Shown piece after piece: positions 1 through 56,604 of a DNA stretch of 56,604 nt. Each line of letters starts with the position of its first letter. The stretch's first letter is position 1. Below the pieces are notes generated by a model that worked only from the letters and a program-made list of their open reading frames with translations, was not told where the DNA came from and made no database searches. The stretch is taken from positions 1 to 56,604 of IMG/VR virus record IMGVR_UViG_3300045988_114323; one strand, 5' to 3'. Both the position numbers and the translations under genes were made by a program. This DNA is from a virus.

Positions 1-119
1 AAGCGCACTGAGAGGAATTGAAAGCAAGACGGTGGAGTCGTTGCAGAAGATTCAGAGCCAGACGGAAGCGTCTCAGAACAGTATCAAGCAGTCCATAGCT
101 GATGCAACCGAAAAAAAGA
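1..119. repeat. Terminal overlap, copy 1 (identical to 56486..56604)
   Basis: AAGCGCACTGAGAGGAATTGAAAGC...GAAAAAAAGA matches the window end base for base. Confidence 0.95.
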
Positions 120-3836: not shown

Positions 3837-4556
3837 ATGGCATACATTAAATTTTTGGGAACAAGAAAAGCATACAAAGCATCTGTTATTCCAAATGGGA
3901 ATATTGTTACTTTAAAGTTTGCTAATATGAAAGAAGTGAATACTAGCGGATTTAATTTGTACCTTGATGAAAAATGCACTGTCGATATTGGCGGTGCATC
4001 TTATCGAGGATATACTACAATGTATCGGAATGACAGCGAGACAGAAGCATACAATGGATATCAGCTGTCAAATAATGGCAGTGTGTATTCTGAGCCTGTT
4101 GCACCAACACCAGATCCAGTTGTGGAGGTTACACTGGAAGAATTAAAGGCTCAGAAAATTGCAGAAATGAATGCAAAGCAGCAAGAGGCGATACAGAACG
4201 GTATCAATGTAAAGCTGTCGGATGGTGCAACACATCACTTTACCCTTACTACTAATGACCAGATTTCACTTATGGGATTACAGACAGAAGTGGAAAAGGG
4301 AACAGAGAAAATCTCGTGGCATACATCAGACCAGTCGGAACACTGCCAATATTATAGTAATAATGATATGAAAATCATTGTTGACACAGCACTTGCACTG
4401 GTAACATATCATATTACAATGTTTAGAGACTTGCGTATTTATATCAATAGTATGCAGGACAAAGCAAGTGTGGAATCTGTATATTACGGCATTTACATTC
4501 CTGAGGAATACCAGTCAGAAGTTTTGAAAGATTTATATGCCGTACAGAATGCGTAA
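3837..4556 (+). CDS. Phage protein with DUF4376-like C-terminal domain
   Basis: RBS AAGGAAAGGA. Pattern LEELKAQKIAEMN...DGATHHFTLTTNDQISL...ISWHTSD...YHITMFRDLRIYINS resembles DUF4376 as I recall it. Confidence 0.5.
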   Translation: MAYIKFLGTRKAYKASVIPNGNIVTLKFANMKEVNTSGFNLYLDEKCTVDIGGASYRGYTTMYRNDSETEAYNGYQLSNNGSVYSEPVAPTPDPVVEVTLEELKAQKIAEMNAKQQEAIQNGINVKLSDGATHHFTLTTNDQISLMGLQTEVEKGTEKISWHTSDQSEHCQYYSNNDMKIIVDTALALVTYHITMFRDLRIYINSMQDKASVESVYYGIYIPEEYQSEVLKDLYAVQNA

Positions 4557-5000: not shown

Positions 5001-5795
5001 TTACCGGACTCCCCAGCTTCCGTCTGGATTAAGGAATCCTATTACATATCCAATTTTATCTACAATCATATCATCCGGTATGTATGCACTGTCCGTCATT
5101 AATGGCGAATACTTCCAGTGCATAGTGCCGTTTTCATATACTTTTTTCTTAATTGCAATGTGAATAGCACCGTTTTCGGTAATCACGCAACGTTCCCCAT
5201 CCAATGCCAATCTGTCCGCTGCTAAAAGCACAATTTCACCAGGCAGATAATATGGCATATAAAAATCACATGGTATTTTTAATCCGAGATATGCTCTTGA
5301 CATGACATCTTCTGGGACATCTTTTATTGTCATTGGGTCGACAGCATTTGTTGTAGCGATCACTCCATTAACTATTTGAGGGCGAAGAACAGATATATAT
5401 TTTCCCTTAGAATCAAAAGATTGGTATATTTTCTGTTGATGCCGTATAAAGTATCTTATTAGGTATATTGACTGCTCTGGCAGACCTCTTACAATACGCA
5501 CAGATTCCCTCATTTTCGGCTCCATTGTGTCAGAGCCCACTAATTCATCAATGCTTATTTCAAGTGCCTTTGCAAGGCTGATTACAGTGGATAATTTGAC
5601 ATTGTTAGAAGTTCCGTAAAGAAGAGTATTAAGCGTTGAAAACGGAACACCTGATGCTTCAGAAAGATTTTTGATTGTGATTTCTGGCGTATCTATGTAC
5701 ATACTTAAATTGTGCCGTAGAGACTCCATAAAATCACCATTTTGACAGACCGTTAAATTCGTCGAAATATCAATGCGGTTTTCTTCTCTCAACAT
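5001..5795 (-). CDS. CI-like repressor: XRE HTH plus degenerate S24 (LexA-like) C-terminal domain
   Basis: RBS AGGGGGA before ATG 5795. HTH segment ITIKNLSEASGVPFSTLNTLLYG. In the C-terminus, CDFYMPYYLPGEIVLL aligns with GDSMxPxIxxGDxVLV, with Phe at the catalytic Ser position. Confidence 0.7.
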   Translation of the reverse strand: MLREENRIDISTNLTVCQNGDFMESLRHNLSMYIDTPEITIKNLSEASGVPFSTLNTLLYGTSNNVKLSTVISLAKALEISIDELVGSDTMEPKMRESVRIVRGLPEQSIYLIRYFIRHQQKIYQSFDSKGKYISVLRPQIVNGVIATTNAVDPMTIKDVPEDVMSRAYLGLKIPCDFYMPYYLPGEIVLLAADRLALDGERCVITENGAIHIAIKKKVYENGTMHWKYSPLMTDSAYIPDDMIVDKIGYVIGFLNPDGSWGVR

Positions 5796-7944: not shown

Positions 7945-7988
7945 AGTATCACCTCCTTGTGAGGAATTATAACATAGAAAGGAGAGTA

Positions 7989-8714
7989 ATGAGAGAAATA
8001 AGCATTTTTAACAGTGAAGAGTTCGGAGACATCCGGGCAATTGAAATTGATAATGAACCGTGGTTTGTAGGAAAAGATGTTGCTACAGCGTTGGGATATT
8101 CCAACACTAGAAAAGCTATCGGCGATCACGTTCATGAAGATGATAAGGGCGTAACGAAATGGGACACCCTTGGAGGAAAGCAGGATTTAACCATTATCAA
8201 CGAATCCGGTTTATACGCTTTAATCTTCGGTAGCAAGCTGGAATCAGCCAAGAGATTCAAACATTGGGTAACATCAGAGGTTCTTCCAGCGATTAGGAAA
8301 ACTGGAAATTATAATATTCCGATGACCATTGAAGAACAGTTGCAGATCGTGGCGAAAGGAACACTGGAAGTCAAGGAAGAAATCAAGCGAGTTGATAATG
8401 ATTTGCAGAATTTCAAAGAGGACATGCCGTTGCTTGCGCTGGAATGCCAGAGGATTACTAGGGCGAAGAATCAGAAAGTGGTTCCGCTGATGGGTGGTAA
8501 GAAAGCTCCGGCATACAAGAATAAGAGTCTGATGCATAAGGTCTACAGTGATGTGGACGCTCAGCTCAGAAGAGAGTTCGGAGTAAACACATACAAGGCA
8601 ATCAAACGCAGTCAATGTGATTTGGCGGTGAAGATTATCGAAGACTATGTTCTTCCGATGTATCTGAAAGAAGAGATTGACGCAGAAAACAGCCAGTTGA
8701 GTTTTGGGCTGTAA
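7989..8714 (+). CDS. Antirepressor (Bro-N domain family)
   Basis: AAGGAG RBS. N-terminus FNSEEFGDIRAIEIDNEPWFVGKDVATALGY is a typical Bro-N/ANT sequence. Confidence 0.7.
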   Translation: MREISIFNSEEFGDIRAIEIDNEPWFVGKDVATALGYSNTRKAIGDHVHEDDKGVTKWDTLGGKQDLTIINESGLYALIFGSKLESAKRFKHWVTSEVLPAIRKTGNYNIPMTIEEQLQIVAKGTLEVKEEIKRVDNDLQNFKEDMPLLALECQRITRAKNQKVVPLMGGKKAPAYKNKSLMHKVYSDVDAQLRREFGVNTYKAIKRSQCDLAVKIIEDYVLPMYLKEEIDAENSQLSFGL

Positions 8715-11918: not shown

Positions 11919-12609
11919 TACCAAAGGGTGGATAAAACTTCATCGGAAAACTCTGGAAAACAATGCTTGCGTTAAGGATGCAGATCACTTGGCAATATGG
12001 TGTTGGATTCTGCTGAAAGCCTCTTATTCTTCGGAAGAACAGTGGTTTGGTGGTGAACTTATCAATATATCGGAGGGTCAATTTTTGACTACGTTAAGAG
12101 AGATAAGTGACAGCTTGAAAATAAATCCAAGTAAAGTAAATCGAGTATTACATTTTTTAGAAAGTGAAAAGCAGATTGAAAAACGGTCTAGTAACAAAAA
12201 AACGCTTATTACCGTTGTTAACTGGGATAATTACCAGTTAAAAGAAAAACAATTTGAAAAAAAAGAAAAGCCAAAAGCATCAGAGAAAACGGCAAAGCAC
12301 AGGCATGGAGAATATGGTCATGTTCTTCTGACGGTCAAGCAGTTTGACAAACTGGTATCTGATTACGGTGAATCAAAAACACAAGATGCAATAAAATTTC
12401 TTGATGAATATATTGAGATGAAAGGCTACAAGGCGAAAAACCACAATCTTGCAATGAGAAAATGGGTTTTTGATGCTGTTGAAAGAGATAAGAAAAAAAA
12501 TGCAGGATATTCTTCGAGAGATTTCAACAAGCAAGAATTTCAGCTTGATTATTTACTTGGCAGCATCATGGAAGACGAGGAGAATGAGAATGACATTAAA
12601 GGAAACTAA
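11911..12609 (+). CDS. Replisome organiser / replication initiator (wHTH N-domain, Phg_2220_C-like C-terminus)
   Basis: N-terminus GWIKLHRK...GQFLTTLREIS. C-terminus GHVLLTVKQFDKLVSDYGESK...EYIEMKGYKAKNHNLAMRKW. Confidence 0.65.
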   Translation: MNDTKGWIKLHRKTLENNACVKDADHLAIWCWILLKASYSSEEQWFGGELINISEGQFLTTLREISDSLKINPSKVNRVLHFLESEKQIEKRSSNKKTLITVVNWDNYQLKEKQFEKKEKPKASEKTAKHRHGEYGHVLLTVKQFDKLVSDYGESKTQDAIKFLDEYIEMKGYKAKNHNLAMRKWVFDAVERDKKKNAGYSSRDFNKQEFQLDYLLGSIMEDEENENDIKGN

Positions 12610-13246
12610 AAAGATATTGGCAACTATTATGGTTGCGTATCCTAATTTTAAGCTAGTAAACGTGGATGCGACCGCAAATATTTGGTTTGATGCATTAAAT
12701 GATTTTGATTATTCTTTTGTATCCATGGCATTGAAAAATTATATAAGGTCTGATGAATCTGGATTTGCTCCTAGTATCGGACAGCTTGTCAAACAAATAA
12801 AAATTATATCAGTTCCAGATCATCTTAATGAGATTTCAGCGTGGTCGTTTGTAAGTAACGCAATTAGAAATAGCGGATACAATTCTGTTTCGGAATTTGA
12901 AAAGTTGCCGGAATTGGTACAAATGGCTGTAGGTTCACCAGGGCAGTTAAGGCAATGGGCGTTGGATGAAAATTATAACGAACAGGTTGCGTCGTCAAAC
13001 TTTATGCGTACATACAGAGCTGTTAAAGAGAGTTCGGTGAATAATTCAAAGTATTCCGACAATGTGAAGGCATTGATTGATAACGTGAACTATGGTTCAG
13101 ATACAACGAAACTTATTCAGAAAAATAGAGAGCTGATTGACAAGAAGAAAACTTTGATTGAGGAAGGGCAACGCGAATCTGAGGAAATGTCAGAGAAAAC
13201 TGCGAAGTTATTAGGAGAGTTGATGGATGATCTTAGAGAAAGTTAA
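12590..13246 (+). CDS. G39P-like helicase loader/inhibitor
   Basis: N-terminus TLKETKKILATIMVAYPNFK...WFDALNDFDY...APSIGQL matches the SPP1 G39P pattern. GAGGAG RBS. Confidence 0.6.
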   Translation: MTLKETKKILATIMVAYPNFKLVNVDATANIWFDALNDFDYSFVSMALKNYIRSDESGFAPSIGQLVKQIKIISVPDHLNEISAWSFVSNAIRNSGYNSVSEFEKLPELVQMAVGSPGQLRQWALDENYNEQVASSNFMRTYRAVKESSVNNSKYSDNVKALIDNVNYGSDTTKLIQKNRELIDKKKTLIEEGQRESEEMSEKTAKLLGELMDDLRES

Positions 13247-13318: not shown

Positions 13319-13933
13319 ATGATTATGAAAAAGGATGCATTATCTGTAGCAAAAGAGTTGGTTAAAATCTTGGAAAAACTGCATGAAAAGAATTTTGTTA
13401 TGCTTGCAGATCTTAAACCAGGCGATAAATTTTCAACAGGAATTGGAAATTTTATTGTTCTGGAACAGAAAGAAGATTGTGCTGTAATTATCACTGAGAA
13501 ATTGTATATGGAAGCCGAGATATTCGATGATAGTTGCAATGATTACAAGAAGTCATCATTAAGAGAAAAGTTCGATGGAGAAATTCTCGATGAGTTCATT
13601 GCTGAATTTGGAGAAGAAAACATTTGTGAAAACGAAGCTGGACTGGTAACAGTTGACGGACAGGAAGTTTTTGGAAAACTTTTGAATAAAGTAAGACCGC
13701 TGACATTTGATGAAGCACGCGAATATAATGATTTGTTGGTGAATGAAAAGTTGACGGATTGGTACTGGACATGTACGCCTTGGAGCACGAAAGAAAGAGT
13801 ATATGGATGTACTGTTGCAGTTGTTTCCCCGCGTGGCAATTTCAGCAACTATAATTGCAGCTTCTATATCGGGGTGCGCCCGGTTTGTATCTTAAAATCT
13901 AATCTCTTTGTATCACGAGTAAAGGAGGATTAA
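13319..13933 (+). CDS. DGR target protein 1 (C-terminal variable region, CLec-type / WW..TP...GVRP motif family)
   Basis: C-terminus WYWTCTPWS...VVSPRGNFSNYNCSFYIGVRPVCI contains VR1. It is a paralog of 13936..14526. Confidence 0.85.
   Translation: MIMKKDALSVAKELVKILEKLHEKNFVMLADLKPGDKFSTGIGNFIVLEQKEDCAVIITEKLYMEAEIFDDSCNDYKKSSLREKFDGEILDEFIAEFGEENICENEAGLVTVDGQEVFGKLLNKVRPLTFDEAREYNDLLVNEKLTDWYWTCTPWSTKERVYGCTVAVVSPRGNFSNYNCSFYIGVRPVCILKSNLFVSRVKED
13820..13881 (+). repeat. DGR variable repeat VR1
   Basis: Gap-free 62-nt alignment to the TR. All 8 mismatches fall at TR adenines. Confidence 0.9.
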
Positions 13934-13935
13934 TT

Positions 13936-14526
13936 ATGATGACGTTAACCGAATTTGGTAAAAAGCTTGAAAAATTAAATGAAGCATATGAACAGCTTAG
14001 AAAGAAATACCAGAAACCGGAAGTTGGAAACACAGTAGAAGTAGCCGGAATCAAATGGCTGGTACTGGATAAGTTGGAAAAAGGATATCTTGTGATTTCA
14101 GAAGATTTTTACGGAGAATATAAAGAATTTGATAATAGTAAAAATGACTGGAAAACCAGTAGCCTTAGAAATTACCTTAACACGAAACTTCGAAAGGAAA
14201 TTGAAGAGGATGTTGGACAAGATGCACTTGTCAAGTTTGATCGCGATTTAACTTCAATGGATGGGCAGACGGAATACGGAATTTGCGAAGACTATGTTTC
14301 TATTATTACATTTGATGAATATAGAAAATACAGAAATTTACTTGCAAATACAGAAGAATACTGGTGGACGCTTACACCTGATAGTACGTCTTGTAACGAT
14401 GATTCTCGGTGGTTGCAAGTTGTTTCCCCGCGTGGCTTTATCAACTTCTATATTTGCGTCTTCAATTTCGGGGTGCGCCCAGTTTGTATCTTTTCTTCTT
14501 CAATCTTTGAATCAGAACAGGAGTAG
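13936..14526 (+). CDS. DGR target protein 2 (paralog of target 1)
   Basis: AAGGAGG RBS. C-terminus YWWTLTPDS...VVSPRGFINFYICVFNFGVRPVCI contains VR2. Confidence 0.85.
   Translation: MMTLTEFGKKLEKLNEAYEQLRKKYQKPEVGNTVEVAGIKWLVLDKLEKGYLVISEDFYGEYKEFDNSKNDWKTSSLRNYLNTKLRKEIEEDVGQDALVKFDRDLTSMDGQTEYGICEDYVSIITFDEYRKYRNLLANTEEYWWTLTPDSTSCNDDSRWLQVVSPRGFINFYICVFNFGVRPVCIFSSSIFESEQE
14419..14480 (+). repeat. DGR variable repeat VR2
   Basis: Gap-free 62-nt alignment to the TR. All 12 mismatches fall at TR adenines. Confidence 0.9.
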
Positions 14527-14529
14527 AAA

Positions 14530-14901
14530 ATGTCAGATAGTGAATTAAGGGTAATCTTGAAAGCTAAAGAACTGGCTACTCATACATTGAGATTAACCAG
14601 CAATGCAAATAGATATCCTAAAAAATATAGATTTTCATTAGTGGATAAGATGCAGAATAAGTCAATGGAAATATATGAGATGCTGTTTGAAGCAAATAGA
14701 ACGGATATCAGAGATTACAAAAGAGACAGACTGGAACTACAGACAAAAGCAATTACATATTGTGATGAATTACTGTTTTATATAGAAATGTCGCATGATT
14801 TAAATATTTTGAATGGGAAAAGCATGGAATATTGGTCAAAAATAGTATCTGATGTGAAACATATGGCGATTGCTTGGAGAACTAAAGACAGAAAAAGATA
14901 A
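14530..14901 (+). CDS. avd: Accessory variability determinant (Avd; four-helix-bundle / 23S rRNA IVS protein family)
   Basis: 123 aa, basic and predicted helical. Lies between the VRs and the TR, as in canonical DGRs. Confidence 0.75.
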   Translation: MSDSELRVILKAKELATHTLRLTSNANRYPKKYRFSLVDKMQNKSMEIYEMLFEANRTDIRDYKRDRLELQTKAITYCDELLFYIEMSHDLNILNGKSMEYWSKIVSDVKHMAIAWRTKDRKR

Positions 14902-14931
14902 ATATGTTTTAGGTTTTCTTTTGTAAATTTG

Positions 14932-14993
14932 GTTGTTTCCCCGCGTGGCAATATCAACAACAATAATTGCAACAACAATAACGGGGTGCGCCC
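14932..14993 (+). repeat. DGR template repeat (TR)
   Basis: GTTGTTTCCCCGCGTGGC AAT ATC AAC AAC AAT AAT TGC AAC AAC AAT AAC GGGGTGCGCCC. Non-coding, located about 105 nt upstream of the RT. Confidence 0.9.
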
Positions 14994-15098
14994 ATTCTGT
15001 ATTACAGGCGGTAAGAGTAGGCGTAAAGCCGAAATCAGAATAATAGATACAAAAAGAAAGAAGACCTTCCTCTCAGAGGTAAATATAAAGGAGTACAA

Positions 15099-16124
15099 AT
15101 GGATAAGGATGTTGTCGCAGATTTTGACAATCTGTATAAGGCTTACCGAAAAGCAAAGTCTGGTAAGGGATTTAATACAAGCACTGCTAAGTTTTCAACA
15201 ATGGCATTAGATGGAGTTTCTTTGATAAAAGAGCAGTTGGAAAATCAAAGTTATAAAGAAGACAATTTAAACAGGTTCAAAATATATGAGCCGAAAGAAA
15301 GAGTGATAGAATCGTGTTCTTTTAAAGATAAGGTTGTGCAGCATTGCTTCTGTGACAATATCTTGCATCCAAAATTAGATAATTTGTTTGTCAAGTATAA
15401 TTCGGCCGGACAAATTGGAAAAGGAACGTTATTTGCAATAAATGGATTGAAGAATCACATGGAGGAATTTTATAAAATTCATGGCTGTGATGGTTGGGTA
15501 TTGAAATGCGATATACGTCATTTCTTTTATGAAATAGATCACGAATTACTGAAAAATATTCTTGATTATTATTTTGATGAAGATTTTACGAAATGGCTTA
15601 ACAGATGTTTTATTGATAATTCGGACAATCCGGGACTACCTCTTGGAAATCAAGTGGCACAGGTTTATGCATTGTTAATGCTTGATGGCATGGATCACAT
15701 GATTACCGGGGAACTTGGTATTGATTTATACGGTCGGTATATGGATGATTTTTATTTAATCCATCATAACAAGGCGTATTTGAAGTTTTGCCTGGAACAC
15801 ATAAGAGAAATGATAAATACACTTGGATTGGAATTGAATGGTAAGACACAAATTGTTCCTATCCGTAAAGGAATTAGATTTCTTGGTTTCCATCATTATA
15901 TAACCGATGACGGAAAGTATATTAGAAAGCTTACAGGAGAAAACAAAAGGAAAATCCGAAAGAAAATAAGAATATGGGTGAAATTAGTTAAGTCTGGAAG
16001 AATGCCCGAAAAGAAATTTTATGAGAAATATGGAGCATGGAAGAATCATGCATCACACGGAAATTGTATAAAACTGATACACGGCATGGATTTATATGTC
16101 GAAGAGCTGATGAAAGGAGAATGA
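15099..16124 (+). CDS. DGR reverse transcriptase
   Basis: RT motifs IRHFFYEIDH, LPLGNQVAQVYALLML and YGRYMDDFYLI (YMDD). Adjacent to the TR. Confidence 0.9.
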   Translation: MDKDVVADFDNLYKAYRKAKSGKGFNTSTAKFSTMALDGVSLIKEQLENQSYKEDNLNRFKIYEPKERVIESCSFKDKVVQHCFCDNILHPKLDNLFVKYNSAGQIGKGTLFAINGLKNHMEEFYKIHGCDGWVLKCDIRHFFYEIDHELLKNILDYYFDEDFTKWLNRCFIDNSDNPGLPLGNQVAQVYALLMLDGMDHMITGELGIDLYGRYMDDFYLIHHNKAYLKFCLEHIREMINTLGLELNGKTQIVPIRKGIRFLGFHHYITDDGKYIRKLTGENKRKIRKKIRIWVKLVKSGRMPEKKFYEKYGAWKNHASHGNCIKLIHGMDLYVEELMKGE

Positions 16125-16126
16125 CG

Positions 16127-16441
16127 ATGAGAGTAATTAGCCAAGATGGACGCTATGACATCCCTTATGGTCAAGCTATGTTATTGAGATACGGAAGCAG
16201 TATATACATTATGAGCCAGAACTTTTCTGGTGTCGAAAGAATTATAAGCGATCCAGTAATTGCGGAATATTCCACCGAAGAAAAAGCAATTAAGGCTATG
16301 GAGATGTGCAGAGAGAAGTATCTTTCGAGAATGGAGCTAGATGGTGGGCATGACGTTGTAAACGGTTGCTACGTGCAACCTAATTACTGGGTATTGCCTA
16401 AGGTATTCCAGTTTCCGGCAGATGAGGGTATAGAGGTATAA
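16127..16441 (+). CDS. Small hypothetical protein (distant paralog of 35532..35810)
   Basis: AAAGGAGA RBS. Shares MR(V/I)I.Q and Y.(S/T)EE(K/R)A with the other copy. Confidence 0.55.
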   Translation: MRVISQDGRYDIPYGQAMLLRYGSSIYIMSQNFSGVERIISDPVIAEYSTEEKAIKAMEMCREKYLSRMELDGGHDVVNGCYVQPNYWVLPKVFQFPADEGIEV

Positions 16442-16454
16442 GGAGATTTGCTGA

Positions 16455-17666
16455 ATGAAATTTATTGATTGGTTTGCCGGAATTGGTGGTTTTAGGCGAG
16501 GAATGGAGCTTGCTGGTCATGAATGTGTCGGTTTTTGCGAATTTGATAAATTTGCGACTGCGAGCTACATATCCATGCATCTGCTGACAAACGAACAGCG
16601 GAGAGCACTGCAAGAATTACCGCTGAAAAAGCGACAAAAGGAGATTTTAAAAGATGAATACAGAAACGGAGAATGGTACGCAAATGACGTTAGAAGAGTG
16701 TGTGCCGATGATATTCCGAAAGCAGACTGTTGGTGTTTCGGATTCCCATGCCAAGACATCTCAGTTGCAGGAAAACAACTTGGATTTCAAGGAAACCGTT
16801 CAAGCTTGTTTTTCAGAGTTATGTACCTTATCGGACAGCTCAAAGAAGAAGATAAACCCACTTACCTTTTCATTGAGAACGTTAAGAATTTGCTTAGTGT
16901 TAATGGAGGATGGGATTTCGCCAGATTGCTCATTGAAATGGAGCAGGGGGGGTATGATGCAGAATGGCAAGTGCTCAACTCTAAAGATTTCGGAGTGCCA
17001 CAGAACAGAGAAAGGTGCTTCATTATCGGACATCTTAGAAGCAGAGGCCCAACAGAAATATTTCCTGTCGAAAGATCAAACAGAGAAGATAGTATTCAAA
17101 TAATAGGTCACAGGGACGGTTACAGGAGAAATACACAAGTATTTTCACAGGAAGGAATCACAGAAGCATTAGACACAGCGGCCGGCGGAGGAAGAGGACA
17201 TCACGTAGAGATACCGTGTTTTATAGATTTGAGCTATCAAAAATCAGAGTTAACTAATAAGGCAAGGTGCTTACAGGCAAGATACAACAAAGGAATCACA
17301 AATCATAAAGCGGAAGTAAGTGGAGTTGCAATTCCGGTTCTTACACATGATCGAGCGAAAAAGCGACAGAATGGGCGGAGGTTCAAATTAGACACAAGTT
17401 GCAATCAGGGGATATTCGTTCAAGCGTCGGAAGAATTGACCGTATATGCAGTCTGGTATGAAAAATATCAGTGTTACATAGCAATCAGAAAACTAACTCC
17501 GAAAGAATGCTTTAGACTGCAAGGATGGACAGATGATTATTTTGATAAAGCGCAGTTTGTGAACTCTGATAGTCAACTATACAAGCAGGCTGGCAATGGA
17601 GTTACTGTCAATGTGATAGAAGCGATTGCGGAAAAGATAAGAGAGGAGATCGGACAGGATGGATAG
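16455..17666 (+). CDS. dcm: DNA (cytosine-5)-methyltransferase
   Basis: Motifs FAGIGGF (I), GFPCQDIS (IV), ENV (VI), QNRERCF (VIII) and AGNGVTVNV (X). Confidence 0.9.
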   Translation: MKFIDWFAGIGGFRRGMELAGHECVGFCEFDKFATASYISMHLLTNEQRRALQELPLKKRQKEILKDEYRNGEWYANDVRRVCADDIPKADCWCFGFPCQDISVAGKQLGFQGNRSSLFFRVMYLIGQLKEEDKPTYLFIENVKNLLSVNGGWDFARLLIEMEQGGYDAEWQVLNSKDFGVPQNRERCFIIGHLRSRGPTEIFPVERSNREDSIQIIGHRDGYRRNTQVFSQEGITEALDTAAGGGRGHHVEIPCFIDLSYQKSELTNKARCLQARYNKGITNHKAEVSGVAIPVLTHDRAKKRQNGRRFKLDTSCNQGIFVQASEELTVYAVWYEKYQCYIAIRKLTPKECFRLQGWTDDYFDKAQFVNSDSQLYKQAGNGVTVNVIEAIAEKIREEIGQDG

Positions 17667-19700: not shown

Positions 19701-19878
19701 TGGACGGAAAATACGGAAGAACAAGAAAAGTAATGAAGATGGACGGTCAGAAACATTATAACGGGCTTGAAAAATTAAAGCCGGATTAGAAAGCAGTAAT
19801 AAATTATAGAAGACCAGCATATCCTAATATAAGTGTTGTTGATTACGTTAAGAAATGTAAGTAGTGGAGGAATGGCTT

Positions 19879-20106
19879 ATGAAGTTATCGAAACTGACTA
19901 AGCCAGAACTTGATTATTTTTTGAAAAATGCCAATTTTACAGAAGAAGAGGAAAAAGTTTTTATTCAATGCTCTAAAGGAAAATCAATACAGGAAATAGC
20001 ATTTTCTATCGGTGTTTGTGACAGAACTATAAACCGAAGAATATCTGCTATTTACGCAAAAATAAAAAGATTGGAGGTATACGCTAATGGCAATTCTGAC
20101 AATTGA
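19879..20106 (+). CDS. Sigma-70 region-4-like HTH regulator
   Basis: GGAGGA RBS. GKSIQEIAFSIGVCDRTINRRISAIYAKI resembles a region 4 / LuxR-type HTH. Confidence 0.55.
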   Translation: MKLSKLTKPELDYFLKNANFTEEEEKVFIQCSKGKSIQEIAFSIGVCDRTINRRISAIYAKIKRLEVYANGNSDN

Positions 20107-20268: not shown

Positions 20269-21630
20269 ATGGAATGTGTCGCATATTTGCGTGTTTCAAC
20301 AGAAAAGCAGGCAGAAGAGGGCCATGGTCTTGAAAGTCAAAAGAGAGACATCGAGAACTATTGCCGAAAAAATGAATTGATTATAGTAGATTGGTATGTT
20401 GATGATGGATATACAGGATCTAATATGGATAGACCTGAGTTCCAAAGACTTATAAGCGATTGCTATGCGAAAAGAGTAAAATGTGTTGTAGCTTATAAGC
20501 TTGACAGAATATCCAGAACAATGTTGGATTCTATTTATGTAATTGAGCGTATATTTCAGCCAAATAATGTCCGGCTTGAGTGTGTCCATGACGCTGTTAA
20601 TTACAATGATCCTATGCAACAAGCATATACTCAGATGATGGCAGTATTTGCGCAGCTAGATAAAAACACAATGATGCTTCGTATGCGTGGAGGTATACTT
20701 GAACGAGTTAAAAAAGGATACTGGCCTGGCGGTGGCATTAAGCCGTATTGCTACAGATATGACAAAGAGATCGGGATACTAATTCCAATACCAGAAAGAG
20801 CCGAAAGAGCAAGACAGGCACTAGATTTGTTTATTCAAGGATATTCCGATGAAAAAATAATGCGAATGCTTGGTTTCCGAACGGAAGGAGTAGTGCGAAA
20901 CATACTTACCGGAGTAGTAAATATTGGAAAGATTAAATATAAAGGCAATGTTTATCAAGGCAGACACGAACCAATATTTGATGTGGAAAAGTTCAATCTT
21001 GGCTTGGAGATTCGGAAGACGCGAAGCAAAGCAAGAGCATATTGCCGGACAGAGCCAAATTTACTTACTGGACTGTGCTATTGCGGTGTATGCGGCTGTA
21101 AAATGAGGTACCAAAAATGGGGTTCAGACAGGAGAAAAATGTACTGCTGTTCGCGAAACCGATACTTGGATTACTTGCCAAACTATAATCATGATTGTGA
21201 CAATTCAGTGGAATGGGCTGACAAAATTGAAGAACAGGTTGAAAGCGAGATTTTAAAAATATCCCTAAATCTTTCTAGCTATAAGCCTAAAGAGAAAGCT
21301 ACGAAGCTTGAAATCATGCAATCACAATTGGATAAAAGCAAAACTAAATTAAGACGTCTTTACGAGCTGTATGCAGATGGAAACGACATGGTTCTTGATA
21401 TGATTAGCAATCTTGAGAATGAGATTGAGATATCTAAGGAAAGAATCAAAGAAGAATCTAAAAATATCCAAAAAGAAAACAAAAAAGAATATGTTTATGA
21501 AAACATAAAAAATCTTGCCGACGTCTGGGACACGATCGACAAGACAAAGAAAAATACTATATTGAAGAGTATAATCTCTAAAGTAGTAGTTGTCAACGGA
21601 AACGTTGACATTCAATTAAAATCTTTTTAG
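20269..21630 (+). CDS. Large serine recombinase (integrase)
   Basis: N-terminal resolvase motif AYLRVSTEKQ...G.GLESQ, then a recombinase domain and a Cys-rich zinc ribbon (CYCGVCGCKM...CC), then a C-terminal coiled coil. Confidence 0.9.
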   Translation: MECVAYLRVSTEKQAEEGHGLESQKRDIENYCRKNELIIVDWYVDDGYTGSNMDRPEFQRLISDCYAKRVKCVVAYKLDRISRTMLDSIYVIERIFQPNNVRLECVHDAVNYNDPMQQAYTQMMAVFAQLDKNTMMLRMRGGILERVKKGYWPGGGIKPYCYRYDKEIGILIPIPERAERARQALDLFIQGYSDEKIMRMLGFRTEGVVRNILTGVVNIGKIKYKGNVYQGRHEPIFDVEKFNLGLEIRKTRSKARAYCRTEPNLLTGLCYCGVCGCKMRYQKWGSDRRKMYCCSRNRYLDYLPNYNHDCDNSVEWADKIEEQVESEILKISLNLSSYKPKEKATKLEIMQSQLDKSKTKLRRLYELYADGNDMVLDMISNLENEIEISKERIKEESKNIQKENKKEYVYENIKNLADVWDTIDKTKKNTILKSIISKVVVVNGNVDIQLKSF

Positions 21631-21736: not shown

Positions 21737-21758
21737 GTCGCTATAAGCGACTTTTTTT
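21737..21758 (+). terminator. Intrinsic terminator
   Basis: GTCGC-TATAA-GCGAC stem followed by T7. Confidence 0.7.
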
Positions 21759-26011: not shown

Positions 26012-26923
26012 ATGAAAATATGTCCAAGGTGTAACACGTTAAATGCTGATAATGCATGTTATTGTGAAAAGTGTGGGAATGATATAAAAGGCATTCCGTT
26101 GTATAACAATACAAAAGCGTCGAAGCGGTCTCCTAAGCGGCGTGTCATATTGCTTATTATTTCTTTTTGCTTAATTATTGGATTTTCTGTTTTCGTGGCA
26201 GAATCAGACAGAGACACAAAGCAAAACACAATTCGTTCAATGAATGCCGATAAAGAAAAACTAAAAGAAAAGAAAAACTATGAAAAAAAGAAAAATAATT
26301 CGTCTACAGAGGAAACAGCACCTGTTCAAAAAGAAGATGCTTTTTTAACAAATTTAAAAACAGTTCTTGACCCTACTGTATCTGAAACAGCGTATGATAT
26401 TTTGAAAAATCAAATAGGGTTCTCGAAGCTTGAATATGTCTCTAAAATGGGCGAAACATCAAATTATGAGATAAAGTGTGATGGCATAGATATGGTTCTG
26501 ACAGCTAGTGATAAAGTGTATCGTATCTTTATTCCAAGTAGTTCTTATGTGTTCTATGAGGATGACGCAGTAAAACTAACTGCAAAACAATATTCTGACA
26601 GAACTATTGATTATGATAAGCAGTCTAGGTATTATATAATAGCAACAGAGATAGTTAGCTCAGTATTAGCCGACCCAAGTTCAGCTGATTTTCCATCCGT
26701 TGTGACTAATGCCGGGGAAATTACAATGCAAAGGAATGGAAGTCTTGTGGCAATACAAAGCTATGTTGATTCAAATAATTATTATGGTCAAAAAGTTAGA
26801 AGCAATTTTACCGTTGAATTTGTTGTCACTGACATGGACAGCTTCGCTTATGAAGTAAAATATATCAATGTCGATGGTCAAACGAGTGGAGAGTTTATAG
26901 ATATAGACAGCTGGTCTGAATAA
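26012..26923 (+). CDS. Zinc-ribbon / single-TM / extracellular-domain protein
   Basis: N-terminus CPRCN...CYCEKCG, then the TM segment ILLIISFCLIIGFSVFV. Confidence 0.65.
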   Translation: MKICPRCNTLNADNACYCEKCGNDIKGIPLYNNTKASKRSPKRRVILLIISFCLIIGFSVFVAESDRDTKQNTIRSMNADKEKLKEKKNYEKKKNNSSTEETAPVQKEDAFLTNLKTVLDPTVSETAYDILKNQIGFSKLEYVSKMGETSNYEIKCDGIDMVLTASDKVYRIFIPSSSYVFYEDDAVKLTAKQYSDRTIDYDKQSRYYIIATEIVSSVLADPSSADFPSVVTNAGEITMQRNGSLVAIQSYVDSNNYYGQKVRSNFTVEFVVTDMDSFAYEVKYINVDGQTSGEFIDIDSWSE

Positions 26924-27833: not shown

Positions 27834-28091
27834 ATGGAAGAGTTCGCAAAGATGATATACGAACAATGGTGTAAAGGAAACGAAGACCGGGATGTATATT
27901 TAAAAAAAGGAGAAGAACTGGTAGACGAGTTGCACGAAGTATTGTCACTTAAGTTGTCAGAAAAAATTTACGAGACATTTTGTGATAGTAGCCTTGAAAT
28001 AGAGGAAAGATCATTTATTGCTGGGTTTAGTTACGCTTGCAAGTGTCTGTCAAACGGAAAAGTTGAGATTGGCGGTGGTTTGAATGAATAA
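27834..28091 (+). CDS. Hypothetical protein
   Basis: GGGGGA RBS before ATG 27834. Confidence 0.5.
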   Translation: MEEFAKMIYEQWCKGNEDRDVYLKKGEELVDELHEVLSLKLSEKIYETFCDSSLEIEERSFIAGFSYACKCLSNGKVEIGGGLNE

Positions 28092-28767
28092 TGTCGTCAC
28101 TGTAGAAAACACGGAAATGCAGATCAGAGAGTACAACGGTCAGCGAGTGGTTACTTTCAAGGATATTGATACTGTGCATCAAAACAAGGATGGAACAGCC
28201 AAGAGGAATTTTTCCAGAAACAAAAAATATCTTATTGACGGAGAGGATTATTATTTTGCAACAAGAGATTTTTCTAAAAGTCTCAATTTGTCCCCTTTGA
28301 ATATTGATATTCCTACAAGGGGAATAACGTTGTTGACAGAAACCGGATATTTGATGTTAGTTAAATCATTCCGAGATGACCTTGCGTGGAAAGTACAGCG
28401 ACAGCTTGTAAAGTCATACTTCCAGAAGCCATTGCTTAATCTGGCAGAGAAGTATAAACGACCAGTATCGAACTGTCCAGCACCACTTGCAACGGACTTT
28501 TACAACACGAATTGGGAGAAAATAAGCTGTTGCAAGAGAGCAAATTCACTTCCAGAGAGTGATATTTTGGATGTAGTCTTTGCTTATGTATCCAGGAAGT
28601 ATGATTTTGATATAGCAGAGAGGATGTATGAGGATCAAGTTGGACACAAGCCGAAAAATAGGATGGACGTTCTGGACTTCTTCCCAGAAATGAAAGCACG
28701 AGCGCAATTAGCGATTGATGGATTGTACGGAAATGCATTGAAAATGGAAGAAGAAAAAAGCAAATAA
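28084..28767 (+). CDS. ORF6N/KilA-N-like DNA-binding (antirepressor-type) protein
   Basis: IREYNGQRVVTFKDIDTVHQ...RNFSRNKKYLIDGEDYY...TETGYLMLVKSF matches the ORF6N pattern. Confidence 0.6.
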   Translation: MNNVVTVENTEMQIREYNGQRVVTFKDIDTVHQNKDGTAKRNFSRNKKYLIDGEDYYFATRDFSKSLNLSPLNIDIPTRGITLLTETGYLMLVKSFRDDLAWKVQRQLVKSYFQKPLLNLAEKYKRPVSNCPAPLATDFYNTNWEKISCCKRANSLPESDILDVVFAYVSRKYDFDIAERMYEDQVGHKPKNRMDVLDFFPEMKARAQLAIDGLYGNALKMEEEKSK

Positions 28768-55925: not shown

Positions 55926-56604
55926 ATGGAGACAAAAATAACTACAGTAAGTCTTGCTGCGAAAGAAGATAAATACTATGCGGATAAAACACTGTACCAA
56001 TGGAACTATGGTCAGATACTACGGATTGTAGATGCAGACCTTCCAATGGCTGTTGAAATCGGATTTTCAACTACAGAAAAATCAGGAGATTCAGACGTGC
56101 GGGTTGGATCCACTAACAACGGTGTTACTACGGTAGCAATTCCGAATAAGTTATTTGAAGAAGAACGGAGTACTGATTATAGTATTTATGCATTTGTGTA
56201 TGTTACTGATGAAAATTCTGGAACAACGGTGCATGAGATAGTCATTCCAGTAAAGGCAAGAGCGAAACAGGGTGACCCGTCAGAAGACCCAAGCATAGAT
56301 CCAAGCATTTTTAAAGATGCTATTAATGCGGTAAATGCATCTGCGGAGCGTGCTGAAATAGCTGAAAAGTCAGCAAAGGAATCAGCGGATAAAGCAAAGG
56401 AATATGCCGAGAGTGCCGGGAAAAGCAAAGGAGACGTAGAAAAAGCAAGAGATAATGCAATCTCAGCTATCGGTATAGAAAAAGAAAGCGCACTGAGAGG
56501 AATTGAAAGCAAGACGGTGGAGTCGTTGCAGAAGATTCAGAGCCAGACGGAAGCGTCTCAGAACAGTATCAAGCAGTCCATAGCTGATGCAACCGAAAAA
56601 AAGA
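55926..56604 (+). CDS. Tail fibre / BppU-like baseplate protein, N-terminal part (runs off the window and continues at 1..2089)
   Basis: AAGGAG RBS and ATG 55926. No stop codon to the window end. LYQWNYGQILRI resembles the BppU N-domain. In frame with 32..2089 across the 119-bp overlap. Confidence 0.8.
   Translation, partial: METKITTVSLAAKEDKYYADKTLYQWNYGQILRIVDADLPMAVEIGFSTTEKSGDSDVRVGSTNNGVTTVAIPNKLFEEERSTDYSIYAFVYVTDENSGTTVHEIVIPVKARAKQGDPSEDPSIDPSIFKDAINAVNASAERAEIAEKSAKESADKAKEYAESAGKSKGDVEKARDNAISAIGIEKESALRGIESKTVESLQKIQSQTEASQNSIKQSIADATEKK
56486..56604. repeat. Terminal overlap, copy 2 (identical to 1..119)
   Basis: Direct comparison with positions 1..119. It lies inside the tail-fibre coding frame. 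Confidence 0.95.

Follow-up and report, generated by a model that had tools for sequence, protein, structure and literature searches.

Small DUF6273 proteins as paired targets of a diversity-generating retroelement in the replication region of a temperate Lachnospiraceae phage

Phage diversity-generating retroelements (DGRs) are usually read as tropism-switching devices that act on tail fibres. [quoted passage not shown] The cassette family described here raises the question of what a phage DGR diversifies when both of its targets lie in a replication operon and no structural target accompanies them. The DNA analysed, IMG/VR virus record IMGVR_UViG_3300045988_114323, is 56,604 nucleotides long and is referred to below as the window. 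Both of its ends carry the same 119-nt exact repeat, so the source genome is circular or complete, and the host of the DGR is a 56.5-kb temperate tailed gut phage of Lachnospiraceae. According to the original prediction, the element diversifies two small early-region proteins that do not look like virion components.

The locus is a complete DGR, with the gene order target 1, target 2, Avd, template repeat (TR) and reverse transcriptase (13319-16124; Table 1). A 3-copy direct repeat (family D1) ties VR1, VR2 and TR together. The two target ORFs are as originally described, and diversification of both is borne out by the mismatch pattern: within the 62-nt cores, all 8 differences between VR1 and TR and all 12 between VR2 and TR fall at TR adenines (hypergeometric P = 2e-5 and 2e-8, respectively). 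The TR core carries nine AAY codons and one ATC around a fixed TGC, and the TR translates as VVSPRGNINNNNCNNNNGVRP. Its 19 core adenines occupy codon position 1 in ten cases and position 2 in nine, never position 3, and about 1.5e11 peptides are possible for each target. Both VRs lie within the last ~115 nt of their target ORFs. A GC-rich 3' element, GGGGTGCGCCC, is present in exactly three copies in the window, as against 0.14 expected by chance, and resembles an initiation-of-mutagenic-homing (IMH) site; immediately 3' of the element, the VRs read (A/G)GTTTGTATC and TR reads ATTCTGTATT, and these differences are of the non-adenine kind. Neither a third VR nor a second TR was found within the window, and a third target was rejected because the tail genes contain no hidden VR.

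Table 1. Features of the DGR cassette and of the two genes that flank it (window coordinates)
Feature	Position	Strand	Description
G39P-like helicase-loader gene	12470..13246	+	Pfam Inhibitor_G39P 5.7e-8; directly upstream of cassette
Target gene 1 (TGT1)	13319..13933	+	204-aa ORF; DUF6273 / predicted C-type-lectin-fold protein
VR1	13820..13891	+	62-nt mutable core 13820-13881, then 3' stretch with non-adenine differences from TR
Target gene 2 (TGT2)	13936..14526	+	196 aa; TGT1 paralogue, 33% identity
VR2	14419..14490	+	62-nt mutable core 14419-14480
Avd-like accessory gene	14530..14901	+	123 aa; between target 2 and TR
Template repeat (TR)	14932..15003	+	72 nt; between Avd and reverse transcriptase; core 14932-14993
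GC-rich 3' element GGGGTGCGCCC, IMH-like	VR1 13871..13881; VR2 14470..14480; TR 14983..14993	+	exactly three copies in window
Reverse transcriptase	15099..16124	+	341 aa; Pfam RVT_1 3.2e-15
C5 cytosine DNA methyltransferase	16455..17666	+	Pfam DNA_methylase 8.6e-63; downstream of cassette

The Avd assignment is weak by score but consistent in position. The ORF matches Pfam bAvd (3.9e-5) and 23S_rRNA_IVP (2e-4), both below the curated cut-offs; its sole NCBIfam match, DivGenRetAVD (6e-11), is likewise below the curated cut-off, and orthologues of 72-84% identity are found at this place in related loci. The reverse transcriptase (RT), which begins 95 nt downstream of the end of TR, carries YMDD and the motif-4-like stretch LPLGNQVAQ. 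NCBIfam and PADLOC yielded generic RT matches alone, below their cut-offs; orthologues of 64-72% identity come after Avd in 66 loci.

Each target is an acidic protein of 23 kDa. TGT1 probably starts at ATG 13325, giving 202 aa, since its homologues measure 202 aa; TGT2 is preceded by a strong ribosome-binding site (AGGAGG). Both proteins are predicted to consist of a single DUF6273 / C-type-lectin-fold domain preceded by an amphipathic helix at the N-terminus. Relative to the Pfam DUF6273 cut-off of 23.5 bits, TGT2 scores above (29.6 bits) and TGT1 below (19.1 bits); phrog_9958 matches both along their full length (TGT1, 1e-34 over residues 29-202; TGT2, 1e-43), and NCBIfam and PADLOC match neither. 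The C-type lectin fold that had been proposed is recovered by an AlphaFold model of TGT1, computed from a 66-sequence alignment of three subfamilies (pLDDT 89.7; N-terminal helix at residues 5-21). This model replaced an earlier one of TGT2, built from 32 close homologues, that had a pLDDT of 68, fell below 50 in the VR region and gave weak Foldseek matches except 9qa6. The best Foldseek match of the TGT1 model is also 9qa6, the DUF6273 N-terminal domain of an IgA peptidase (E = 1.6e-5), followed by 8q4e, the C-terminal domain of Legionella Lcl (probability 0.99), and then by many C-type lectin domains with weak E-values and low TM-scores (0.3-0.56). The VR is predicted to form a beta-hairpin at the C-terminal end of the lectin fold: its residues 171-182 fall in the modelled strands E173-177 and E182-184, and the family profile aligns to 9qa6 across the VR-equivalent stretch.

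The beta-rich N-terminal region that was originally set apart from the variable C-terminus is actually the first half of this single fold. A separate N-terminal domain was rejected, as phrog_9958 spans residues 23-195 and, in relatives, the DUF6273 profile is covered from its position 6 to 171. Searches of Pfam, PHROG and NCBIfam found no attachment domain (beta-prism, beta-sandwich or other) before the lectin fold, in agreement with the absence of fibre-attachment homology on which the original prediction depended; a helix of ~20 aa stands there instead. The hydrophobic heptad positions of this helix are kept in TGT2 (L4, F7, L11, L14), while its sequence belongs to the protein's more variable stretches, and a sequence-conserved docking motif was rejected because conservation is limited to those positions. 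By a Kyte-Doolittle heuristic, neither target has a signal-peptide-like or membrane-spanning segment, as first noted, and the same scan found an export-like segment in none of 150 family representatives. There is no other DUF6273 match among the tail proteins of the window, and a literature search for virion proteomic data on the target family found none. A Pfam scan of ten longer homologues for fused domains returned DUF6273 alone. By eye, the homologue P0127 has an N-terminal extension with a zinc-ribbon-like CxxC...CxxC motif, P0168 has a short Lys/Val/Gly-rich N-terminal stretch, and the C-termini of some homologues are acidic. A repeat protein of 6979 aa (P0140) would be consistent with extracellular DUF6273 contexts.

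The Pfam matches of the flanking genes confirm that the targets lie between a G39P-like loader and a methyltransferase. Exonuclease, RusA and DnaD-like genes are located farther upstream than the loader. Genes for terminase, portal, capsid, tape measure and tail proteins occupy 36.7-55.5 kb and 0-4.5 kb, which agrees with the proposed distance of the targets from the tail genes in a circular or complete genome. The terminase gene is 22 kb and the beginning of the tape-measure/tail block more than 32 kb downstream of the targets; the closest tail-related gene (3837-4556, a weak tail-fibre PHROG match) is ~8.8 kb away. The targets are thus encoded neither inside nor adjoining the tail module, unlike Mtd-like receptor-binding tail proteins. 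They belong to a putative lytic early operon, with the repressor gene on the opposite strand, and the cassette precedes a small LuxR/GerE-type regulator at 19864-20106. Genes downstream are tightly spaced, with no plus-strand terminator-like site exceeding a 13-nt stem-loop before 21737. Promoter and terminator scans gave counts no better than shuffled sequence and yielded no evidence of a promoter belonging to the cassette itself.

Of 104 related loci, mostly Lachnospiraceae prophages and IMG/VR contigs, 66 carry the whole two-target cassette. Prophage copies occur in MAGs assigned to gut genera including Dorea, Mediterraneibacter, Roseburia and Agathobacter, and at least 384 IMG/VR contigs encode a TGT2 relative; a search of 50,697 phage records with the cassette DNA gave a single match, an unannotated 5.6-kb faecal fragment. 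Sequence comparison indicates that both VRs are diversified throughout the phage family in natural populations. In the 66 complete loci, adenine accounts for 1321 of 1477 TR-VR mismatches; of the 132 VRs, 104 depart from TR at adenines alone and none is identical to its TR, with a median of 11 differing positions out of 60 nt in VR1 and 10.5 in VR2. The highest-entropy columns of both orthologue groups are the VR columns, and relatives that are 80-96% identical differ mainly there.

Within the ~10 kb of flank available per related locus, the cassette is always found among replication, recombination and methylase genes. Its commonest neighbours in 102 loci are a DnaD/HTH_36-type replication initiator, RusA, SSB, AAA_23, ERCC4 and RecT; a DnaB-like helicase, DUF4317, C5 and N6/N4 methylases and GIY-YIG are also represented. 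Homologues of the structural proteins of the window were absent within ~9 kb in 100 of the 102 loci and within ~8 kb in all of them. The four-gene unit is conserved, its flanks being several non-homologous replication modules, and the target genes stand upstream of putative late regulators in replication operons of several unrelated types. In loci L108 and L109, a small DUF6273 target is still in the early region with no RT within 10 kb. The early-region placement on which the original prediction drew holds in about 100 related loci and three other phage lineages.

Small DUF6273-only proteins have been described as second DGR targets of the gut phages nd4 and nd12 (nd4_tgt2 and nd12_tgt2; Baykov et al. 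2023, PMC10743442). Like the targets here, these have a single C-type-lectin-like DUF6273 domain with short helices (on both sides in the nd type) and a 3'-end VR that forms a beta-hairpin, and one TR serves two targets; nd4_tgt2 is also encoded among replication genes. In tblastn searches, TGT2 shows 30-34% identity to the nd4 and nd12 sequences (E = 2e-14 and 7e-14). Proteins of the nd4_tgt2 type measure ~200-300 aa and have one lectin-like domain between short helices and a 3'-terminal VR; the targets here, of 196 and 202 aa with one helix, then one domain and a 3'-end VR, fit this description. The partner target in nd4 and nd12, however, is a large tentaclin with Ig-like domains and a VR near the 5' end, whereas the cassette here has two small tandem paralogues directly upstream of Avd and no large target. 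Predicted hosts differ as well, one nd4-like prophage being in Flavonifractor and the present family in Lachnospiraceae. In tentaclins, the DUF6273 domain is N-terminal, its VR is close to the 5' end, and Ig-like or Fn3 domains come after it (Baykov et al. 2023, PMC10743442). A tentaclin identity of the targets was rejected: they have no Ig-like or Fn3 domain, the lectin domain ends the protein, and their VRs are 3'-terminal.

FP_Toutatis gp24 and Lelie orf58 of Faecalibacterium phages (PMC11792537; bioRxiv 10.1101/2024.10.15.618418) are likewise small stand-alone DUF6273 proteins with a C-terminal VR, ~29-30% identical to TGT2 and encoded among methylase and replication genes; gp24 lies between methylases and the replication initiator, upstream of antiterminator Q. 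These phages differ in having a single small target, ~17 kb from TR, together with a Hoc-like tentaclin, and in the location of the Avd-TR-RT unit, which occupies a hotspot flanked by tail genes and integrase instead of the replication module. The second DGR target of Quimbyvirus, encoded in a methylase-rich island, was proposed to be non-structural and to act in phage-host conflict (Benler et al. 2021, PMC8008677). It resembles the targets here in its C-type lectin domain, its distance from the structural module and its proximity to DNA methyltransferases, but Quimbyvirus has a Bacteroides host, a target of another family on the opposite strand, a frameshifted RT and a first target adjoining tail-fibre genes, whereas here both targets are early.

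BPP-1 shares with the present cassette a C-type-lectin-fold variable protein with a C-terminal VR, the order target-avd-TR-RT and adenine-specific mutagenesis with AAY codons. As described in PMC10743442, Mtd has 381 aa and uses an N-terminal beta-prism and beta-sandwich for trimerisation and fibre attachment. It is encoded with tail genes, in contrast to the ~200-aa targets here, which have a 20-aa helix before the fold and lie in a replication module. Intracellular DGR targets of bacteria (PMC10907252; cited in PMC8008677) place C-type-lectin/FGE domains on putative antigen sensors and kinases. These too are diversified lectin folds without export signals, proposed to bind variable ligands inside the cell; they differ in being large multidomain cellular proteins with effector or signalling domains, whereas the targets here are phage-encoded and single-domain, with no effector.

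The novelty of the locus is modest, because small DUF6273-only DGR targets were described in 2023-2024 (PMC10743442, PMC11792537, bioRxiv 10.1101/2024.10.15.618418) and a non-structural role for a phage DGR target had been put forward in 2021. The service of two paralogues by one TR, pointed out in the original prediction, is real (two VRs, one TR), but it is known and common: the same architecture occurs in the 66 complete loci, and DGRs with several VRs are familiar from the literature (PMC5758913 as cited in PMC11792537), so the pairing was rejected as a special feature. The agreement of the Toutatis/Lelie, nd4 and L108/L109 cases with the present family points to a rule: a DUF6273 target that is small and stands alone is encoded in the early region, with or without an adjacent RT. 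As small targets remain early where the RT is distant, the travelling of a target with its cassette does not account for the position.

Because the targets have no attachment domain and no export-like segment and are located in the early region, we tentatively favour, at somewhat short of an even chance, the reading that both are early- or middle-expressed, non-structural soluble binders rather than built-in tail parts. They may be oligomeric via the heptad-patterned N-terminal helix. In the version that we prefer, they would operate within the cell just infected, on variable proteins of the host or of rival elements, and a binding variant would directly benefit its own encoding genome; in a weaker version, they would act as free lectins after lysis. 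A more specific proposal, which we regard as unlikely, is that the pair constitutes a phage-borne library of hypervariable intracellular binders, somewhat antibody-like, under selection to bind variable proteins of host defence or rival elements and neutralise them. Such a library would be expressed with replication and anti-restriction genes, the DGR would drive counter-defence and not tropism switching, and the stand-alone small early-region DUF6273 proteins of unrelated Firmicutes phage lineages would form one functional class.

Several facts weigh against the non-structural reading. Lysis brings phage proteins outside the cell without a signal peptide, and receptor-binding genes can lie outside tail modules, as in the case of phage T5 pb5. 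The heptad helix and lectin domain of the targets recall collectins, extracellular multivalent binders with a trimeric neck and a carbohydrate-recognition domain. DUF6273 is otherwise known from extracellular settings, among them the secreted, wall-anchored IgA peptidase ThomasA (PMC12402451) as well as tentaclins and tail-fibre fusions (PMC10743442, PMC11792537).

It appears only somewhat unlikely that the targets are virion add-ons, that is, accessory receptor binders, oligomerised by the helix and docked on a tail fibre or baseplate, similar to Mtd in function, so that DGR variation would retune host or glycan recognition. Receptor binding is the role that Baykov et al. (PMC10743442) favour for nd4_tgt2 and nd12_tgt2 and that Egorov et al. 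suggest for small DUF6273 targets, including that of Toutatis. The predicted C-type lectin fold with its variable hairpin, as in Mtd-type targets, the fusion of DUF6273 relatives to Ig-like and tail-fibre domains, the conserved heptad positions and the strong TGT2 ribosome-binding site are all in line with this view, and Foldseek matches in BFVD include DUF6273 proteins named receptor-binding or tail proteins. However, the N-terminal helix through which docking would occur is poorly conserved in sequence, no recognisable attachment domain precedes the lectin fold, none of the 102 loci has a homologue of the structural genes of the window within ~8 kb of the cassette, and the genes precede putative late regulators inside replication operons of several unrelated types.

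An improbable alternative is a role outside the particle: the targets would be lectins produced in lysogeny or on infection and set free by lysis or in vesicles, and they would benefit the lysogen or the phage population by binding variable glycans of bacteria, mucus or host cells, for instance in adherence or receptor masking. The predicted lectin fold suits such a role, and the export signal that the targets lack would not be needed for release by lysis. Moreover, a DUF6273 tentaclin of Mushuvirus is reported to be expressed in lysogens and found in extracellular vesicles, and its DGR to be active during lysogeny (2026 preprint, bioRxiv 10.64898/2026.05.08.723808). Up to 18 related loci retain targets with no RT within at least 3 kb downstream, which suggests that the targets are useful on their own. 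On the other hand, the vesicle precedent is a large Ig-domain protein unlike the small targets here, the promoter scan gave no support for expression in lysogeny, and the genes are in a putative lytic early operon on the strand opposite the repressor gene. A free soluble protein also provides a weak genotype-phenotype link, so selection on DGR variants would be hard to explain.

There is similarly little probability that the position is uninformative and the cassette a mobile unit that came to rest in a permissive region of accessory genes: the conserved four-gene unit amid several non-homologous replication modules and the presence of the Toutatis-type Avd-TR-RT unit in a hypervariable hotspot (bioRxiv 10.1101/2024.10.15.618418) would suit this explanation, but the neighbourhood is of the same type in 102 loci, the RT-less L108 and L109 are placed alike, and Toutatis gp24, a core gene present in 98.8% of those genomes (bioRxiv 10.1101/2024.10.15.618418), and Lelie orf58 are early in spite of their distance from TR.

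Should the early-region rule have a functional basis, receptor binding would not be what some phage DGRs diversify, and the interpretation of DGR prevalence in gut viromes would change. If, instead, the targets are detachable receptor binders, host-range determinants can hide outside tail modules, which matters for host-range prediction. Either way, this cassette family offers a convenient system for a question that has stood since 2021.

We identified a single family of direct repeats, with three copies, in the window: the variable repeats VR1 and VR2, in target genes 1 and 2 (TGT1 and TGT2) of a diversity-generating retroelement (DGR), and the template repeat (TR), in the non-coding stretch between an Avd-like gene and the reverse transcriptase (RT) gene. 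The Avd-like gene, the TR stretch and the RT gene are on the same strand as the targets, with gaps of only a few bases. Over a 62-nt core with the 3' end GCGCCC, VR1 has 8 mismatches to TR and VR2 has 12, every one of them on a TR adenine (P = 2e-5 and P = 2e-8, respectively). The two ORFs that the original prediction took for DGR targets are real. All 19 adenines of the TR core occupy codon positions 1 or 2. The TR translation is VVSPRG-NINNNNCNNNN-GVRP, in which nine AAY codons and one ATC flank a fixed TGC, and about 1.5e11 peptides are possible per target. The GC-rich element GGGGTGCGCCC forms the 3' end of VR1, VR2 and TR and has no other copy in the window. The bases 3' of it are common to VR1 and VR2 and differ in TR at non-adenine positions, the pattern that would be expected of a site for initiation of mutagenic homing. 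No third VR or second TR was detected in the window, and the only additional match of the target-family profile to its six-frame translation was TR itself. The RT matches Pfam RVT_1; for the Avd-like protein, the DGR Avd model is the sole NCBIfam match, with a score under the cut-off. Translation of TGT1 probably starts at the second ATG (13325) rather than at 13319, because its homologues have 202 aa.

Features of the phage genome and its DGR cassette
Feature	Position	Strand	Remark
Tail-associated ORF, endolysin	0-4.5 kb
Repressor	5001-5795	-
BRO-N/ORF6C protein, exonuclease, RusA, DnaD-like protein, G39P-like loader	8-13.2 kb
DGR cassette	13.3-16.1 kb	+
TGT1	13319-13933	+	ORF call, 204 aa as called
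VR1	starts 13820	+	in TGT1
TGT2	13936-14526	+	ORF call, 196 aa
VR2	starts 14419	+	in TGT2
Avd-like gene	14530-14901	+	123 aa, ORF after TGT2
TR	starts 14932	+	non-coding stretch
RT	15099-16124	+	341 aa, RVT_1 match
phrog_25456-type small gene	16037-16441		probable start near 16127
C5 methylase	16455-17666
LuxR/GerE-type regulator	19864-20106		80 aa, just upstream of serine integrase
Large serine recombinase/integrase	20269-21630		phrog_95 integrase, 4e-100
Mostly unknown-function genes	about 21.9-36 kb
Terminase, portal, capsid, tape measure, tail genes	36.7-55.5 kb

The first and last 119 nt of the window (1-119 and 56486-56604) are an exact direct repeat, so the assembly is complete, either circular or terminally redundant, and one unit measures 56,485 bp. 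The module map places the targets among early and replication genes and away from the tail genes, as originally predicted. The serine integrase gene, located mid-genome, separates the early region from a 15-kb block in which most genes are unknown. Several PHROGs without known function occur in this block, as does one weak match to a superinfection-exclusion family (26012-26923), and an anti-repressor-like protein (28084-28767) is encoded some 20 kb from the BRO-N/ORF6C protein (7959-8714). A scan for plus-strand terminators, which overall performed no better than on shuffled sequence, revealed from the cassette to 22 kb only a 13-nt stem-loop at 20582 and a site with a T7 tail directly after the integrase (21737-21751), which looks stronger than any other match past the cassette within the scanned 8-22 kb; inside the cassette, matches were found at the GC-rich element of VR1 (13868) and in the RT gene (15704).

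TGT1 and TGT2 share 33% identity, and both match phrog_9958, a PHROG without known function, over nearly their whole length (1e-34 and 1e-43, respectively); TGT2 scores over the cut-off of Pfam DUF6273 and TGT1 under it. The TGT2 structure predicted with close homologues was of poor quality. For TGT1, an alignment of 66 sequences from three subfamilies gave a good model (pLDDT 89.7, pTM 0.82), which consists of a helix at residues 5-21 followed by a single compact alpha/beta domain, with the VR (residues 171-182) as a beta-hairpin. In a Foldseek search against PDB, its top match was the DUF6273 N-terminal domain of a Thomasclavelia IgA peptidase (9qa6, E = 1.6e-5), followed by the C-terminal domain of Legionella Lcl (8q4e, probability 0.99) and, further down, by many C-type lectin domains with weak scores. 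These results support the C-type-lectin fold that had been proposed; the supposed separate N-terminal beta-rich region is instead the first half of that fold. The hydrophobic heptad positions of the N-terminal helix are conserved (L4, F7, L11 and L14 in TGT2) and the intervening ones are variable, a pattern more suggestive of packing or oligomerisation than of a sequence-specific docking motif. No attachment domain was found in either target. As predicted, a hydropathy heuristic detected no signal peptide or membrane-spanning segment in TGT1 or TGT2, nor in any of 150 family representatives.

The target family is large: at 90% identity there are 2284 clusters for one query and 5278 for the other, and at 50% identity the number is 1189 (median length 207 aa among the top 150). 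Relatives of TGT2 are present in at least 384 IMG/VR contigs; prophages in MAGs of Lachnospiraceae (Dorea, Mediterraneibacter, Faecalimonas, Roseburia and Agathobacter among others) also carry them. The complete order TGT1-TGT2-Avd-RT was seen in 66 of the 104 fetched loci, most others being cut by contig ends, and the targets fall cleanly into two orthologue groups, one for each target and always in the same order. In the 66 complete loci no VR is identical to its own TR; the median difference is 11 of 60 nt for VR1 and 10.5 of 60 nt for VR2, with 1321 of 1477 differences at TR adenines. Given this adenine bias, and an entropy that is far higher in the VR columns than in any others, both targets are diversified throughout the family. 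Up to 18 of the 104 loci (L003, L008, L015, L053, L080, L086, L087, L096-L098, L105 and others) retain one or both targets, and at least the next 3 kb downstream contain no RT; either the targets have outlasted a lost DGR, or the ORF calls missed a disrupted RT. Four cluster representatives (P0121, P0135, P0143 and P0147, 355-411 aa) consist of the small protein twice over, fused in tandem, and in P0121 the first copy has apparently lost the GVRP motif. The sole GenBank phage record with DNA similarity to the cassette (67% over 447 nt) is MT839962.1, an unannotated 5.6-kb human faecal 'Bacteriophage sp.' with two matches to the target protein.

The early-region arrangement is family-wide. When all flanking ORFs of 102 loci were clustered and the commonest clusters annotated, the upstream genes included a replication initiator of the DnaD/HTH_36 type, present in 52 loci and usually at positions -1 to -3, as well as an AAA_23 ATPase (33 loci), RusA (32 loci), ERCC4, RecT and DUF1351. 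Two SSB clusters (45 and 26 loci) were upstream or downstream, and DnaB-like helicase, DUF4317, C5 methylases (23 and 15 loci), N6/N4 methylases and GIY-YIG were downstream or adjacent. Several non-homologous types of replication module are represented, and in one locus SSB and a DnaB-like helicase flank the cassette. Within the flanks examined (medians of 9.4 kb upstream and 8.4 kb downstream), 100 of the 102 loci contain no homologue of the structural or lysis proteins of the window. The phrog_25456-type small gene, which in the window overlaps the 3' end of the RT gene, has downstream or adjacent relatives in 66 of the 102 loci, often two per locus and often directly after RT, and may travel with the cassette.

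Small DUF6273 targets of other phages are similarly placed. FP_Toutatis gp24 (L107, 11505-12152), a published small target that 98.8% of Toutatis-like genomes carry and that is about 17 kb away from its TR (bioRxiv 10.1101/2024.10.15.618418), lies between DNA methylases and a replication initiator, upstream of the antiterminator Q gene. Its orthologue Lelie orf58 (L025, 40024-40671) likewise adjoins methylase and replication genes, and nd4_tgt2 (L106, 30965-31669) lies among replication genes. None of the three sits with tail genes; the papers examined that describe these three do not comment on this placement. In a distant subfamily (31% identity; L108, 10001-10651, and L109, 10001-10624), the target heads the early operon, upstream of YqaJ, DUF1351, RecT and SSB genes. 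No RT is found within 10 kb of it, yet among close relatives nearly all differences lie in the VR-equivalent stretch, an indication of remote DGR targeting. The same placement with the RT elsewhere indicates that early-region location is a property of the small targets, independent of the position of Avd-TR-RT. By contrast, published large DUF6273 targets adjoin tail or lysis genes, as in the tentaclins (which also carry Ig-like domains), the Pioen target, whose N-terminus resembles a tail fibre, and a 407-aa protein in phage FP01 (PMC10743442, PMC11792537, PMC13432834).

The DGR anatomy and the fold are secure. As to where the proteins act, we tentatively favour, at somewhat less than even probability, early-expressed, non-structural soluble binders that would act inside the cell. 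Consistent with this are the early-region placement, conserved in four lineages and independent of the cassette, the position of the targets upstream of putative late regulators, and the lack of an attachment domain and, across the family, of export signals. The original interpretation is supported in part: it stands as to position, fold and export, and not as to a separate N-terminal domain. An extracellular or virion role has points in its favour as well: DUF6273 is otherwise found on secreted or virion-linked proteins; Mtd, the sole experimentally studied phage target, is a receptor binder; the helix-then-lectin layout is reminiscent of collectins, with their trimeric neck and recognition domain; and lysis makes export signals unnecessary. 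That TGT1 and TGT2 are virion add-ons is somewhat less probable than the favoured reading, if still a serious competitor. That they are released lectins we consider improbable, and that the early-region position is simply uninformative seems just as improbable. These four readings overlap in part.

The locus is a DGR with stand-alone DUF6273 targets, a kind already known. Small DUF6273-only targets were published in 2023 (PMC10743442) and 2024 (PMC11792537; bioRxiv 10.1101/2024.10.15.618418), with the authors leaning to receptor binding. A Quimbyvirus DGR target outside the structural module, adjoining methylases, was proposed to be non-structural in 2021 (PMC8008677), and a DUF6273 tentaclin is reported to be expressed in lysogens and present in vesicles (2026 preprint, bioRxiv 10.64898/2026.05.08.723808). 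The global survey of Roux et al. sorted viral targets into structural and unknown ones and noted that 71% of main target sequences have no recognisable domain beyond the VR region. Literature searches yielded no paper describing the Lachnospiraceae cassette family or an early-position rule for small targets. What is added here is that the arrangement holds throughout the family and that, in one lineage after another, small DUF6273 targets are located in the early region. This makes the question of non-tail DGR targets open to experiment.
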